From Escherichia coli (lineage in GTDB: Bacteria; Pseudomonadota; Gammaproteobacteria; Enterobacterales; Enterobacteriaceae), in NCBI RefSeq assembly GCF_050920415.1, contig NZ_CP169309.1: a stretch of 64,000 bases of DNA; one strand, given 5' to 3'. The position numbers and the translations under genes were made by a program. Below the pieces are notes generated by a model. That model saw only the letters and a program-made list of their open reading frames with translations, searched no databases and had not been told where the DNA came from. Below are positions 28,553 through 40,932 of this stretch, in pieces (positions within the stretch are counted from its first letter, which is position 1; every line of letters begins with the position of its first letter).

Positions 28553-29299
28553 GTGACCAAACTCAAACTTCTGGCACTTGGAGTGCTTATCGCAACGTCT
28601 GCAGGCGTAGCGCACGCTGAAGGTAAATTTTCCCTGGGCGCAGGCGTAGGTGTCGTTGAACACCCATATAAAGATTACGATACCGATGTTTACCCAGTAC
28701 CGGTAATCAACTATGAAGGCGATAACTTCTGGTTCCGTGGCTTAGGTGGTGGTTACTACCTGTGGAATGACGCAACGGATAAACTTTCAATTACCGCTTA
28801 CTGGTCGCCGCTTTACTTCAAAGCTAAAGACAGTGGCGATCACCAAATGCGTCACCTGGATGACCGTAAGAGCACCATGATGGCTGGTCTGTCTTATGCT
28901 CACTTTACCCAGTACGGTTACCTGCGTACCACCCTGGCTGGCGATACCCTGGATAACAGCAACGGCATCGTCTGGGATATGGCCTGGTTGTATCGTTACA
29001 CCAACGGTGGCCTGACCGTGACTCCGGGTATTGGTGTGCAGTGGAACAGCGAAAACCAGAACGAATACTATTATGGCGTATCGCGCAAAGAGTCTGCGCG
29101 CAGCGGTCTGCGTGGCTATAACCCGAACGACAGCTGGAGCCCTTACCTGGAGCTAAGTGCCAGCTACAACTTCCTCGGTGACTGGAGTGTTTACGGTACC
29201 GCGCGCTACACCCGTCTGTCTGATGAAGTTACTGACAGCCCAATGGTGGATAAATCCTGGACTGGCCTGATTTCTACCGGGATCACCTACAAATTCTGA
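28553..29299 (+). CDS. mipA: MltA-interacting outer-membrane protein MipA, GTG start
   Basis: ORF track 248 aa; signal peptide, beta-barrel-like sequence ending in aromatic residue. Confidence 0.9.
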   Translation: MTKLKLLALGVLIATSAGVAHAEGKFSLGAGVGVVEHPYKDYDTDVYPVPVINYEGDNFWFRGLGGGYYLWNDATDKLSITAYWSPLYFKAKDSGDHQMRHLDDRKSTMMAGLSYAHFTQYGYLRTTLAGDTLDNSNGIVWDMAWLYRYTNGGLTVTPGIGVQWNSENQNEYYYGVSRKESARSGLRGYNPNDSWSPYLELSASYNFLGDWSVYGTARYTRLSDEVTDSPMVDKSWTGLISTGITYKF

Positions 29300-32598: not shown

Positions 32599-33012
32599 AT
32601 GGCTAATAAACCTTCGGCAGAAGAACTGAAAAAAAATTTGTCCGAGATGCAGTTCTACGTGACGCAGAATCATGGGACAGAGCCGCCATTTACGGGTCGT
32701 TTACTGCATAACAAGCGTGACGGCGTATATCACTGTTTGATCTGCGATGCCCCGCTGTTTCATTCCCAAACCAAGTATGATTCCGGCTGTGGCTGGCCCA
32801 GTTTCTACGAACCGGTGAGTGAAGAATCCATTCGTTATATCAAAGACTTGTCACATGGAATGCAGCGCATAGAAATTCGTTGCGGTAACTGTGATGCCCA
32901 TCTGGGGCATGTCTTCCCCGACGGGCCGCAGCCAACGGGTGAACGTTATTGTGTTAACTCAGCCTCTTTACGCTTTACCGATGGCGAAAACGGCGAAGAA
33001 ATCAACGGTTGA
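32599..33012 (+). CDS. msrB: Peptide methionine sulfoxide reductase MsrB (137 aa)
   Basis: ORF track 32569..33012; start trimmed to [10 protein letters not shown]; zinc CxxC pairs and catalytic Cys. Confidence 0.9.
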
Positions 33013-33053
33013 AAAAACGATTCAGCAACTTATTCCACAGGAGCGGAAAAATT

Positions 33054-33326
33054 ATGAATCTTGATGACATTATCAACAGCATGACGCCTGAGGTATACCA
33101 GCGTTTGTCGACTGCTGTTGAACTGGGAAAATGGCCCGATGGCGTTGCGCTGACCGAGGAACAAAAAGAGAACTGCCTACAGCTGGTGATGCTGTGGCAA
33201 GCCCGCCATAATACCGAAGCTCAGCATATGACAATTGACACACATGGTCAGATGGTCATGAAGAGCAAACAGCAGTTAAAAGAAGATTTTGGTATCTCAG
33301 CAAAGCCTATTGCCATGTTTAAGTAA
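33054..33326 (+). CDS. yeaC: DUF1315 protein YeaC (about 90 aa)
   Basis: ORF track 33009..33326; start trimmed to MNLDDIINSM. Confidence 0.8.
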   Translation: MNLDDIINSMTPEVYQRLSTAVELGKWPDGVALTEEQKENCLQLVMLWQARHNTEAQHMTIDTHGQMVMKSKQQLKEDFGISAKPIAMFK

Positions 33327-33626
33327 GTGGTTTGTCCCCTTTTTGCCGCGGTTATAAAGGGGATAGCCAACAATAACCCCACGACTCATCTCAATTATCT
33401 CGCCCCGACCTGGCTAAGTCCCAGCCCGGTCTCTTGCAGTCGCGTTCACGCCTGAATGACTTCTCCTGAACTTAAGTCTCAGACCTATTTGGCCGGTAAT
33501 CCCTCTCAAATTTGCTCATTTTGCGTTCCACCTTCCATCACCCTGTAACAGACCCAGCCATTTTCTGCGTAATTGTGATCTGAGTTGTAAAACGCAGATC
33601 ATTATCTGTGTTTTAAAGATTTAATG

Positions 33627-33658
33627 TTGACCTCAAAAATCATGTGGGTAAGTATGAT
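33627..33658 (+). promoter_or_regulatory. Candidate sigma70 promoter for ydjL operon (TTGACC, about 17-nt spacer, AAGTAT/TATGAT)
   Basis: -35-like TTGACC at 33627-33632 and -10-like hexamers at 33650-33658; 40 nt upstream of ydjL ATG with GAGGA SD. Confidence 0.4.
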
Positions 33659-33695
33659 GGCCATCTAAGCAAAACAAAACACAGAGGATGACGCA

Positions 33696-34772
33696 ATGAA
33701 AGCACTGGCTCGGTTTGGCAAAGCCTTTGGCGGCTACAAGATGATCGATGTCCCACAACCCATTTGTGGCCCGGAAGATGTGGTGATTGAAATTAAAGCT
33801 GCGGCAATCTGCGGCGCAGACATGAAGCACTACAATGTCGATAGCGGTTCTGATGAGTTTAACTCTATCCGCGGCCATGAGTTCGCAGGTTGTATTGCGC
33901 AGGTTGGTGAAAAAGTCAAAGACTGGAAAGTGGGGCAACGCGTCGTGTCGGATAACAGCGGTCACGTTTGCGGCGTTTGTCCGGCCTGTGAACAAGGTGA
34001 TTTTCTGTGTTGTACAGAAAAAGTAAACCTTGGTCTGGATAACAATACGTGGGGCGGTGGTTTTTCCAAATATTGTCTGGTTCCTGGTGAAATTCTCAAA
34101 ATTCATCGTCATGCGTTGTGGGAAATCCCTGATGGTGTTGATTATGAGGACGCAGCCGTACTTGACCCTATCTGCAATGCCTACAAATCCATCGCGCAGC
34201 AATCGAAATTCCTCCCTGGTCAGGATGTAGTCGTCATCGGCACTGGCCCACTCGGGCTGTTCTCCGTACAAATGGCGCGGATTATGGGGGCGGTAAATAT
34301 CGTCGTCGTTGGTCTACAAGAAGATGTGGCGGTCCGCTTCCCGGTTGCAAAAGAACTGGGTGCGACGGCTGTAGTAAATGGTTCTACCGAAGATGTGGTG
34401 GCGCGCTGCCAGCAAATTTGTGGTAAAGACAATCTGGGACTGGTGATTGAATGCTCCGGTGCCAATATCGCACTTAAACAAGCCATCGAAATGCTCCGTC
34501 CGAACGGGGAAGTGGTACGCGTTGGAATGGGCTTCAAGCCTCTTGATTTCTCGATTAATGACATTACCGCCTGGAACAAAAGAATCATTGGGCATATGGC
34601 CTATGACTCCACCTCATGGCGTAACGCTCTCCGGCTATTAGCCAGCGGCGCTATCAAAGTCAAACCGATGATCACGCATCGTATCGGCCTGTCGCAATGG
34701 CGCGAAGGGTTTGATGCGATGGTCGATAAAACCGCAATCAAAGTGATCATGACTTACGACTTTGATGAATAA
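33696..34772 (+). CDS. ydjL: Zn-dependent medium-chain dehydrogenase YdjL
   Basis: ORF track 358 aa; GHEFAGCI zinc motif, GxGxxG. Confidence 0.85.
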   Translation: MKALARFGKAFGGYKMIDVPQPICGPEDVVIEIKAAAICGADMKHYNVDSGSDEFNSIRGHEFAGCIAQVGEKVKDWKVGQRVVSDNSGHVCGVCPACEQGDFLCCTEKVNLGLDNNTWGGGFSKYCLVPGEILKIHRHALWEIPDGVDYEDAAVLDPICNAYKSIAQQSKFLPGQDVVVIGTGPLGLFSVQMARIMGAVNIVVVGLQEDVAVRFPVAKELGATAVVNGSTEDVVARCQQICGKDNLGLVIECSGANIALKQAIEMLRPNGEVVRVGMGFKPLDFSINDITAWNKRIIGHMAYDSTSWRNALRLLASGAIKVKPMITHRIGLSQWREGFDAMVDKTAIKVIMTYDFDE

Positions 34773-40037: not shown

Positions 40038-40173
40038 ATACTCAACACGATTCACCTCTGTTTCTGTGAAAACTGTGATGAAAATCTGTGATTCAAACAG
40101 GTTATTTTGAAAGTAAACATCGGTTATGCGATAATCGCGCTAATGTGATGTAAAAAGATACAGGGGTGTAATC

Positions 40174-40932
40174 GTGGCGGCAAAAGACAGGATTCAGGCA
40201 ATTAAGCAAATGGTTGCCAACGATAAAAAGGTGACAGTCTCAAATTTGAGTGGGATTTTTCAGGTAACCGAAGAAACCATTCGCCGCGATCTTGAGAAGC
40301 TGGAAGATGAAGGCTTTTTGACCAGAACCTATGGTGGTGCTGTTTTAAATACAGCGATGTTGACGGAGAATATCCATTTTTATAAGCGCGCTTCATCGTT
40401 TTATGAAGAGAAGCAGCTTATTGCACGCAAGGCACTACCCTTTATCGACAATAAAACCACTATGGCAGCCGATTCCAGTAGTACCGTTATGGAATTGCTC
40501 AAATTGTTGCAGGACCGTAGTGACCTGACGTTGCTAACTAACTCGGCGGAAGCGATTCATGTTCTGGCTCAATCAGAAATTAAAGTCGTTTCAACGGGGG
40601 GGGAACTAAACAAAAATACACTTTCCCTGCAAGGAAGAATTACTAAAGAGATCATCAGCCGCTACCATGTCGATATCATGGTAATGAGTTGTAAAGGTCT
40701 TGATATTAACAGCGGCGCGCTGGACTCTAACGAAGCGGAAGCTGAAATCAAAAAGACAATGATCCGTCAGGCGACAGAAGTTGCGTTATTGGTTGATCAC
40801 TCTAAGTTTGATCGCAAAGCTTTTGTCCAGTTAGCTGACTTTAGTCATATTAATTACATAATAACTGATAAATCACCGGGTGCAGAGTGGATAGCATTTT
40901 GCAAAGACAATAATATCCAGCTGGTGTGGTAA
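40174..40932 (+). CDS. ydjF: DeoR-family transcriptional regulator YdjF, GTG start
   Basis: ORF track 252 aa; N-terminal HTH, DeoR C-terminal sugar-phosphate-binding domain. Confidence 0.85.
   Translation: MAAKDRIQAIKQMVANDKKVTVSNLSGIFQVTEETIRRDLEKLEDEGFLTRTYGGAVLNTAMLTENIHFYKRASSFYEEKQLIARKALPFIDNKTTMAADSSSTVMELLKLLQDRSDLTLLTNSAEAIHVLAQSEIKVVSTGGELNKNTLSLQGRITKEIISRYHVDIMVMSCKGLDINSGALDSNEAEAEIKKTMIRQATEVALLVDHSKFDRKAFVQLADFSHINYIITDKSPGAEWIAFCKDNNIQLVW

Follow-up and report, generated by a model that had tools for sequence, protein, structure and literature searches.

What controls the ydj operon of Escherichia coli, and which part of the DNA in front of ydjL would carry that control? YdjF was classed as an uncharacterised E. 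coli transcription factor in the 2016 literature. We analysed a 64,000-nt stretch of E. coli DNA (the window); strain MFDS1022581 matches it at 100% identity, and most other E. coli genomes at 96-97%. Its + strand carries, in this order, msrB, yeaC, ydjL, ydjK, ydjJ, ydjI, ydjH, ydjG, ydjF, and ydjE. The yeaC gene ends with a TAA stop codon at 33326 and ydjL starts with ATG at 33696; the spacer between them, correctly located by an initial annotation of this DNA that gave its length as 370 bp, measures 369 bp by gene coordinates. The RefSeq annotation of K-12 contains no feature in this spacer. A GalR site in ydjI is unrelated to it.

The whole ydj island is absent from about 1,100 of 5,426 complete E. 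coli genomes, in which yeaC adjoins pncA. A phylogroup bias of the island has been reported (PMC9602453) and agrees with our count of island-free E. coli. YdjF, encoded at 40174-40932, contains the Pfam domains HTH_DeoR (PF08220, 2.9e-17) and DeoRC (PF00455, 2.4e-49), bearing out the earlier statement that the operon encodes its own DeoR-type regulator, and ydjF is syntenic with ydjL in 30 or more loci from several phyla. The only solved structure related to YdjF that we found is that of a DeoR C-terminal domain (7L6L), and we found no DNA complex for the family. In the literature searched, including papers that mention YdjF, we found no description of a YdjF operator or of a DeoR-family TCTGTG motif.

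The two parts of the yeaC-ydjL spacer

Conservation divides the spacer into a distal part of about 200 bp next to yeaC and a proximal part of 125 bp next to ydjL. The distal part contains two features:

33328-33369, + strand: hairpin 3' of the yeaC stop codon with core stem GTCCCCTTT (33334-42) and AAAGGGGAT (33356-64), -19.1 kcal/mol, z -2.6
33370-33570, no strand assigned: distal pyrimidine-rich spacer, single-copy, unannotated, and fast-evolving

The hairpin has an invariant stem and a variable loop in four Escherichia sequences and is probably a 3'-end or insulating structure for msrB-yeaC. We rejected it as a canonical intrinsic terminator because the stem, stable as it is, is followed by no T run and a terminator scan was blank.

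As the initial annotation had remarked, the upstream 200 bp are pyrimidine-rich (33366-33570 is 63% C+T, and its GC and AT skews are both negative) and hold no convincing open reading frame, the only ones in the spacer being 30-42 aa long. Because conservation of the distal sequence does not extend from one Escherichia species to another, we discarded a conserved small open reading frame. We also discarded the idea that the distal 205 bp are a repeat or the remnant of a mobile element, since they are single-copy in every E. coli that has them and were not found elsewhere. We found no similarity between the distal spacer and the yeaC-pncA junction of island-free strains. The distal 200 bp show 90-95% identity in 3567 of 4333 E. 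coli, compared with 95-99% for the proximal 125 bp, and are unrelated even in other Escherichia species. An Rfam scan of 32900-34000 (E up to 10) returned only noise, the best match reaching 21 bits against a gathering threshold of 55 (E 8.6). A riboswitch or leader RNA was therefore rejected, also because the two dyads and the sites O1 and O2, described below, lie upstream of the predicted transcription start. We regard the distal spacer as unconstrained junction sequence, i.e., filler.

For footprinting, we aligned 23 Enterobacterales sequences, namely the window and 22 others with the whole ydjL-ydjF cluster. The genera compared include Citrobacter, Klebsiella, Raoultella, Yokenella, Budvicia, Symbiopectobacterium, Enterobacillus, and Serratia. 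Similarity begins abruptly at about 33571 (TTTGTGATC), whatever adjoins upstream, and does so even in genomes in which the cluster lies away from yeaC; before about 33567, no similarity was found outside Escherichia. On balance, we take the proximal 125 bp (about 33571-33695) to be a promoter-operator cassette that serves ydjLKJIHG, an operon for sugar-acid catabolism. Its elements, together with one immediately upstream, are:

33564-33570, + strand: TCTGCGT, left arm of dyad I, an Escherichia-only extra hexamer copy, exact in 3/23 sequences, 20 bp upstream of the start of O2
33574-33580, + strand: TGTGATC, exact in 22/23 sequences, more invariant than any other element and marking the upstream edge of the conserved cassette
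33584-33598, no strand assigned: O2, weaker operator-like 15-mer GTTGTAAAACGCAGA (GTTGTGAAATGCAGA in most genera), 6.1 bits, 21 bp upstream of O1
33605-33619, no strand assigned: O1, main candidate YdjF operator TCTGTGTTTTAAAGA, 19.0 bits, best of 127,972 positions
33625-33639, no strand assigned: weak third operator-like site TGTTGACCTCAAAAA, 7.2 bits, with the -35 hexamer embedded, in a 20-21-bp register with O1
33627-33632, + strand: predicted -35, TTGACC, with TTGA invariant in 23/23 sequences
33650-33655, + strand: predicted -10, AAGTAT, after a 17-bp spacer
33684-33688, + strand: ydjL Shine-Dalgarno sequence GAGGA, 7 nt before the ATG at 33696

The conserved TTGACC agrees with the earlier proposal of a ydjL promoter with a candidate -35 downstream of the inverted repeats. 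Distant genera have AATTAT, AACTAT, or GATAAT at the same -10 spacing, and transcription of ydjL is predicted to start near 33662. In K-12 coordinates (NC_000913.3), this start corresponds to about 1,861,366 on the minus strand, and O1 to 1,861,409-1,861,423. Of the two predicted ydjL promoter elements, the -35 (TTGACC) is good and the -10 (AAGTAT) weak. A consensus promoter scan found no + strand promoter above its threshold of 9, the ydjL promoter scoring 8/12; its one match, on the - strand inside the palindromic array, faces no gene. A further inverted repeat, I1 (33599-614 and 33676-691), was rejected as an RNA element sequestering the ribosome binding site because its left arm lies upstream of the predicted start.

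From nested dyads to a 15-bp motif

The initial annotation had proposed as a possible operator a compound of two overlapping dyads, TCTGCGT-N21-ACGCAGA (dyad I) and TGATCTG-N12-CAGATCA (dyad II). Both lie exactly where it placed them, dyad I at 33564-70 and 33592-98 and dyad II at 33576-82 and 33595-601, and both are perfect in the window and in K-12. Compared with 2000 dinucleotide shuffles of the spacer, the four perfect 7-nt inverted repeats with a gap of up to 30 nt exceed the 0.72 +/- 1.08 expected (P = 0.028), and two overlapping 7-nt inverted repeats occur in 5% of shuffles. Taken as dyads, they are marginally unusual (P about 0.03-0.05).

Footprinting, one of the checks that had been suggested for these repeats, showed, across Enterobacterales, dyad I not to be conserved and dyad II to be conserved in part. 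Dyad I is intact (7/7) only in three Escherichia sequences and reaches at most 5/7, mostly 1-3/7, in the other 20, because conservation starts at about 33571, downstream of its left arm. Dyad II is intact in 6/23 sequences and matches in at least six of seven positions in 14/23. Serratia, Enterobacillus, and Symbiopectobacterium have lost dyad II, E. coli is polymorphic at its seventh and last base, and a change in one arm is never compensated in the other among the 23 sequences.

The unit that is enriched is shorter. The hexamer TCTGNG/CNCAGA occurs five times in the 136 nt from 33560 to 33695 against 0.20 expected, a 25-fold enrichment matched in 0/2000 shuffles, and a 15-bp quasi-palindrome, TCT[G/T]TG-W3-CA[C/A]AGA, has this hexamer as its half-site. 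All four dyad arms contain the hexamer, and the right arms of both dyads fall within O2, which holds the right arm of dyad I and most of that of dyad II (site matches at -112/-113). Dyad I arises from the Escherichia-only hexamer at 33564 and the right half of O2; dyad II arises from that same O2 half, together with its flank, and a hexamer at 33579 that is poorly conserved and lies inside the invariant TGTGATCT. The 15-mer holding the left arm of dyad I (33564-78) scores 3.6 bits and is likewise confined to Escherichia. The fifth hexamer copy, CACAGA at 33680-85 beside the ydjL Shine-Dalgarno sequence, belongs to no full site (no 15-mer above 2 bits).

On this reading, the nested dyads are by-products of four copies of the half-site hexamer. 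That the compound dyad itself is the operator unit, read as long-spaced inverted repeats, strikes us as most improbable. Its perfection in the window and K-12, the enriched hexamer in its arms, and the persistence of dyad II at 6/7 or better in 14/23 sequences would fit such a unit, but dyad I is confined to Escherichia, dyad II decays with distance, uncompensated and polymorphic in E. coli, and the shuffle significance is marginal. Moreover, the 15-mer with its N3 spacer is found again at the ydjF promoter, within ydjL, and in other phyla, but neither of the dyad spacings is. The region is operator-like, as had been supposed, and the right arms lie within the conserved O2, but the dyads are not the conserved unit; on the operator-array model, they would be the wrong targets for mutagenesis.

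The best site, O1, lies between the dyads and the -35 and did not figure in the initial annotation; nor did an inverted repeat returned by a repeat finder, TAAAACGCAGAT (33588-99) and ATCTGTGTTTTA (33604-15). O1 reads TCTGTGTTTTACAGA in K-12 and most E. coli, and at its position Serratia and Enterobacillus have the perfect palindrome TCTGTGTTTCACAGA, i.e., AAATCTGTG-TTT-CACAGATTT. With 91% mean identity outside Escherichia (23 sequences), O1 is both the highest-scoring and the best-conserved site. It ends 7 nt before the -35 and is centred at about -50 relative to the predicted start. The starts of the sites in the array are 20-21 bp apart, i.e., two helical turns. In the O2 register, other motif-like sequences take the place of O2, TCTGCGAAACAAATA in Serratia and TCTTCAATGTGAAGA, a perfect palindrome TCTTCA-ATG-TGAAGA, in Symbiopectobacterium. 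Since different sequences of this kind occupy the same register, the comparison argues for conservation of the O2 register by function and not by descent. Two spacing variants, TCTG-N5-CAGA and TCTG-N7-CAGA, are present, and therefore the true half-site register is uncertain.

The whole ydjL-ydjF cluster, including a YdjF orthologue, is also found in Firmicutes, Atopobiaceae, and Megamonas, with YdjL 76-84% identical. To avoid circularity, we gave an unsupervised Gibbs sampler with local background nothing but the upstream regions of 12 non-enterobacterial ydjL genes. The top motif was TCT[G/T]T[G/A]AAA.CA.AGA; the site TCTTTAAAACAAAGA, from a Clostridiaceae genome, is one base off the reverse complement of the E. 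coli O1, and TCTGTGAAACACAGA, from Atopobiaceae, equals the Serratia O1 on the opposite strand. A k-mer enrichment of Firmicute upstream regions against whole-locus background was set aside as swamped by A/T-rich intergenic composition, being informative only for AAAACAAA and CTGTGAAA.

A matrix built from the 12 sites of the Firmicute/Actinobacteria side was scanned over both strands of the 64-kb window (127,972 positions). Its top three distinct matches all lie within the ydj cluster:

33605-33619: rank 1, 19.0 bits, O1
40085-40099, no strand assigned: rank 2, 17.1 bits, operator-like site TCTGTGATTCAAACA in the ydjG-ydjF spacer, 7 nt before the ydjF -35
34001-34021, no strand assigned: palindrome TTTTCTGTGTTGTACAGAAAA inside ydjL (codons 102-108), containing rank 3 (34004-18, 13.9 bits)

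Reciprocally, a matrix of the Enterobacterales O1 sites was scanned over 14 non-enterobacterial loci of 9-19 kb each, and the top match of the locus fell within 500 bp upstream of ydjL in 9/14. In Atopobiaceae, the top three matches form a tandem array at 20-21 bp, and in one of these loci (L037), a third site of 16.8 bits covers the -35. The arrangement of a site, 7-8 nt, and a -35 is common to E. coli ydjL, E. coli ydjF, and loci L024, L025, L036, and L037. Tandem sites are 20-22 bp apart across loci, and the tandem layout is seen in L025, L037, L040, and at ydjF. The canonical motif is absent from three loci with YdjF orthologues, two from Anaerococcus and one from Megamonas; Megamonas has two variant palindromes, TGTTTA-N3-[C/T]AAACA, which are 21 bp apart and lie downstream of the -10.

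The ydjF promoter (-35 TTGAAA, 40107-12; -10 GATAAT, 40130-35) repeats the layout of the ydjL promoter. TCTGTG occurs at 40063, 22 bp upstream of the 40085-99 site, and a weaker site of 10.8 bits at 40105-19 covers the -35, paralleling the third ydjL site. The 40085-99 site is conserved in nine Enterobacterales and is a candidate autoregulatory site of YdjF; at the level of sequence, the regulator gene is preceded by the same motif as its operon.

The palindrome inside ydjL encodes DFLCCTE, in the part of YdjL that has the structural-zinc cysteines. Among 24 Enterobacterales sequences, no other 21-mer of the gene is as conserved (rank 1/1054), and the seven codons of the palindrome have the lowest third-position entropy (rank 1/352 windows, 1.19 vs a median of 7.3). 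Its variants TCTTTG, CAAAGA, TGCAGA, and CACAGA are those tolerated in the upstream operators, and several of them break the RNA hairpin without compensation. For both reasons, we favour a DNA site over an RNA structure. The palindrome is a candidate auxiliary operator at +308 of ydjL, with its centre 399 bp from the centre of O1. The 15-mer in it (34004-18) corresponds to 1,861,010-1,861,024 in K-12. This site was not found in Firmicutes ydjL.

YdjF and other candidate readers of the sites

The motif is assigned to YdjF because it travels with the cluster and its regulator, precedes ydjL and ydjF alike, and has its top three matches in the window within the cluster. We infer, with moderate confidence, a tandem YdjF operator array that is probably repressing and autoregulatory and that possibly loops to the intragenic site. 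YdjF, which the initial annotation had suggested as the binder, thus appears to be the most likely candidate, and the operator idea would hold in a form other than the dyads. The clustering of several related sites at the promoter (O2, O1, and the -35 site) is what is expected of a DeoR/GlpR-family system. The helix-turn-helix sequence of YdjF, VTEETIRRDLEKLE, is near-invariant across phyla; it is weak evidence because the recognition-helix sequence is conserved in the DeoR family generally.

As a mechanism, we propose that YdjF, a member of the DeoR/GlpR family, would nucleate on O1 and extend cooperatively over the -35, possibly helped by the intragenic operator at +308 through a loop of about 400 bp. 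YdjF would keep the operon off until it is released by an intermediate of the pathway, probably a phosphorylated sugar acid. Autoregulation of YdjF would follow from the presence of the motif at the corresponding place before the -35 of ydjF. Only tentatively, and with some doubt, do we extend this to history: the ydj cluster may have moved between Firmicutes/Actinobacteria and Enterobacterales as a full cassette of regulator, motif, and operator-to--35 geometry, Enterobacterales may have added an intragenic operator maintained by selection at synonymous codon positions, and YdjF may repress through the 400-bp loop. As part of this tentative picture, two Dam GATC sites in the array (33577-80 and 33597-600) might render occupancy sensitive to methylation and expression in the gut heterogeneous.

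Could a regulator other than YdjF read the conserved sites, or could they act as RNA structure, with YdjF controlling something else? Binding of YdjF is deduced from sequence comparison, the half-site CTGT/ACAG resembles a LexA half-site, and an unconventional LexA ChIP signal near ydjF has been reported, which counts for another regulator; the intragenic palindrome, for its part, could fold in the mRNA. Nevertheless, the motif and the YdjF orthologue travel together across phyla that share no other specific regulator, and the motif also precedes ydjF. In O1 of K-12 and in the intragenic site, the spacing is CTGT-N5-ACAG, and not the CTGT-N8-ACAG of the LexA box. O1 and O2 lie upstream of the predicted start and would not be transcribed, there is no Rfam match, and the intragenic variants break pairing uncompensated. 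We consider this explanation highly unlikely.

Whether YdjF would act as a repressor or an activator is a separate question. The centre of O1 near -50, upstream of the core promoter, is a position that suits activators as well as repressors, and the only site over the core promoter is the weak 7.2-bit site on the -35 of a predicted promoter, the strong one ending 7 nt upstream. Silent in culture, the ydjL promoter becomes active in the mouse gut (PMC6561318). It is also absent from a list of 'constitutive promoters' recognised by RNA polymerase alone, on which the ydjF promoter (TTGAAA-17-GATAAT) is present (PMC3946193). This absence, together with the score below the scan threshold, hints at a need for an activator.

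We favour repression because sites overlap the -35 in E. coli and Atopobiaceae, because the Megamonas variant palindromes sit downstream of the -10, because GlpR provides a family precedent (PMC4117983), and because ydjL promoter activity is seen in the gut but not in culture. On the same sites, YdjF could instead be an inducer-dependent activator, as FucR of the same family, contacting, from about -50 and -71, the RNA polymerase at a promoter whose -10 is weak. O1 and O2 lie on the same helical face, a rigid spacing between site and -35, as kept across phyla and at ydjF, is seen more typically with activators, ydjL is missing from the RNA-polymerase-alone list that contains ydjF, and the switch from culture to gut fits either sign. 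What weighs against activation are the tandem variants downstream of the -10 in Megamonas, the further site over the -35 in L037 and at both E. coli promoters, and the ydjF promoter, which has the same geometry and binds RNA polymerase alone (PMC3946193). We hold activation by YdjF to be unlikely, if still worth keeping in mind. Repression by YdjF thus stays our preferred reading; it also accords with the family at large, as most characterised DeoR-family members are repressors.

The 15-mer model does not account for the invariance of TGTGATC. All 23 Enterobacterales sequences have TGTGA.C, including those in which another sequence stands in for O2, and the left arm of dyad II (33576-82) overlaps the element. 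It may be an orphan half-site for YdjF or else the better half of a weak CRP-like site. As a YdjF half-site, it would be read as TTTGTG, which agrees with the operator half-site in 5/6 positions and lies 11 bp before the left half of O2. On the CRP reading, TGTGATCT (33574-81) could supply the strong half of a cAMP-CRP site; CRP would then activate the weak promoter while overlapping the YdjF array, competing or cooperating with it as at glpFK, an arrangement compatible with our main explanation. TGTGATCT equals the extended CRP half-site consensus and occurs twice in the 64 kb. The CRP-like 16-mer (33574-89, centre 33581.5) would be at about -80.5 from a start that is only predicted, near the class I spacing (-61.5, -72.5, -82.5, and -92.5), and the promoter has a weak -10. 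Overlap between GlpR operators and CRP sites is known from glpFK (PMC4117983), and Genomic SELEX detected the similarly TGTGA-rich ydjF promoter region, which has three TGTGA repeats at 10-12-bp spacing (PMC3105977).

Yet, measured against TGTGA-N6-TCACA, the left half matches 5/5 and the right half, TTGTA/TTGTG in place of TCACA, only 2/5; the total of 7/10 has 216 equal-or-better matches in the window. As a CRP 22-mer, the site scores 12/22, which is equalled or beaten at 205 positions in the window. The ydjL and yeaC genes are absent from the SELEX list of CRP targets on which ydjF is present, although absence there is no proof (PMC3105977). Given the 5/6 match of TTTGTG to the operator half-site and the three TGTGA repeats at ydjF, the same protein could read both elements. 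A CRP site in front of ydjL seems to us possible, albeit doubtful.

The operator model for YdjF gives coordinates, a cross-phylum motif, and predicted autoregulatory and intragenic sites. YdjF-operator binding could be used to screen inducers and so to find the natural substrate of the ydj pathway. A gut-responsive biosensor is already triggered by the ydjL promoter (PMC6561318), and the model would allow rational engineering of this device.

The ydj control region compared with known systems

We found no earlier description of the ydj control region in the literature searched; its predicted architecture is a familiar one, a DeoR/GlpR-type tandem array with a possible auxiliary site. The ydj motif TCTGTG-N3-CACAGA is not known to be related to the GlpR consensus. 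Auxiliary operators inside the coding region of glpD, acting at a distance, were reportedly described by Yang and Larson in 1996. At E. coli glpFK, GlpR binds four tandem operators that overlap two CRP sites, and the one over the core promoter gives most of the repression (PMC4117983). The predicted ydj sites resemble this system in the family of the regulator and in the tandem, side-by-side placement of operators across a promoter, but the strongest ydj site lies upstream of the -35, whereas that of GlpR is over the -10.

E. coli DeoR, which belongs to the same family as YdjF, is an oligomeric repressor that uses multiple palindromic operators hundreds of base pairs apart and DNA looping. The deo operon differs in having 16-bp palindromes that overlap the -10 of two promoters, while the ydj operon has one promoter and its candidate distant site is intragenic. 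Purely as an analogy, the lac operon also combines a main operator with a weaker auxiliary one in the first structural gene, at a distance of about 401 bp compared with 399 bp in ydj. The lac repressor is of the unrelated LacI family, its main operator is positioned differently relative to the promoter, and looping in ydj is conjecture.

Operator-like sites within ydjL and upstream of ydjF

The following features of the window and of the Megamonas locus were identified around ydjL and ydjF:

33328-33369: stable hairpin directly 3' of the yeaC stop codon (-19.1 kcal/mol, z -2.6)
33577-33580 and 33597-33600: two Dam GATC sites within the conserved array of predicted YdjF sites upstream of ydjL, separated by 20 bp
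33808-33820: perfect palindrome TCTGCGGCGCAGA in the ydjL codons for ICGAD, with the same half-site hexamers (TCTGNG/CNCAGA) and a 1-nt spacer
34001-34021: palindrome TTTTCTGTGTTGTACAGAAAA inside ydjL (codons 102-108), matching the operator matrix trained on 12 ydjL upstream regions from outside Enterobacterales
40085-40099: operator-like site TCTGTGATTCAAACA, 7 nt upstream of the ydjF -35
within 40063-40135: second TCTGTG, 22 bp upstream of TCTGTGATTCAAACA
within 40063-40135: weak operator-like site covering the ydjF -35
Megamonas locus, ~60 nt upstream of ydjL and 3' of the -10: two variant palindromes, TGTTTACAACAAACA and TGTTTAAAATAAACA, spaced by 21 bp

The palindrome at 34001-34021 lies 399 bp from O1, the main candidate YdjF operator. 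Across 24 Enterobacterales, it shows the highest conservation of all ydjL 21-mers, and its codons reach the gene's minimum of third-codon-position entropy. We regard it as a candidate intragenic auxiliary operator. The second palindrome within ydjL, at 33808-33820, also occurs in other phyla; because the Ala codon varies within it, this recurrence is probably due to amino-acid constraint. In the array upstream of ydjL, the GATC at 33577-33580 is nearly invariant, and methylation sensitivity of the pair is possible.

All three sites in the ydjG-ydjF spacer, i.e., TCTGTGATTCAAACA, the upstream TCTGTG and the weak -35 site, are kept in nine Enterobacterales, a degree of conservation that implies that the DeoR-type regulator YdjF may control its own expression. 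The same spacer contains three TGTGA repeats, and ydjF is among the targets recovered by CRP SELEX (PMC3105977). In addition, an 'unconventional' LexA ChIP-chip site, CCCTGTATCTTTTTACATCA, has been assigned to ydjF/ydjK (PMC3542263). Compared by eye, it appears to be the reverse complement of ~40144-40163, the stretch immediately 5' of the ydjF start codon.

Presence and boundaries of the ydj island

Among 5,426 complete genomes of E. coli, ~1,100 lack the whole ydjL-ydjE island (33327 to ~42500), including the yeaC-ydjL spacer. In these, pncA is the next gene after yeaC, and the match to the window ends exactly at the yeaC stop codon. The stem of the hairpin at this position is kept across Escherichia species while its loop changes; a canonical terminator was ruled out since the hairpin is not followed by a T run. 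In Citrobacter (L005, 6970-8930), and similarly in Klebsiella, an insert of ~2 kb separates yeaC and ydjL, and the ydjL promoter cassette downstream of the Citrobacter insertion is unchanged. Judging from translations read by eye, a 137-aa ORF of the Citrobacter insert resembles an HNH-endonuclease protein, and a 426-aa ORF resembles a family-18 chitinase.

Outside the island, mipA (~28584-29299) is annotated as frameshifted in E. coli MFDS1022581, the strain 100% identical to the window.

The ydj cluster in other phyla

YdjL of E. coli shares 76-84% identity with its counterparts in Lachnospiraceae, Eubacteriaceae, Anaerococcus, Enterococcus, Megamonas, and Atopobiaceae (loci L023-L046), and the cluster is syntenic with these loci. 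This combination points to inter-phylum horizontal transfer, in which the regulator and the operator motif would have travelled with the pathway. Compared with the common motif, the Megamonas palindromes have the same C-to-G change in both half-sites, suggesting that these variant sites co-evolved with the regulator.
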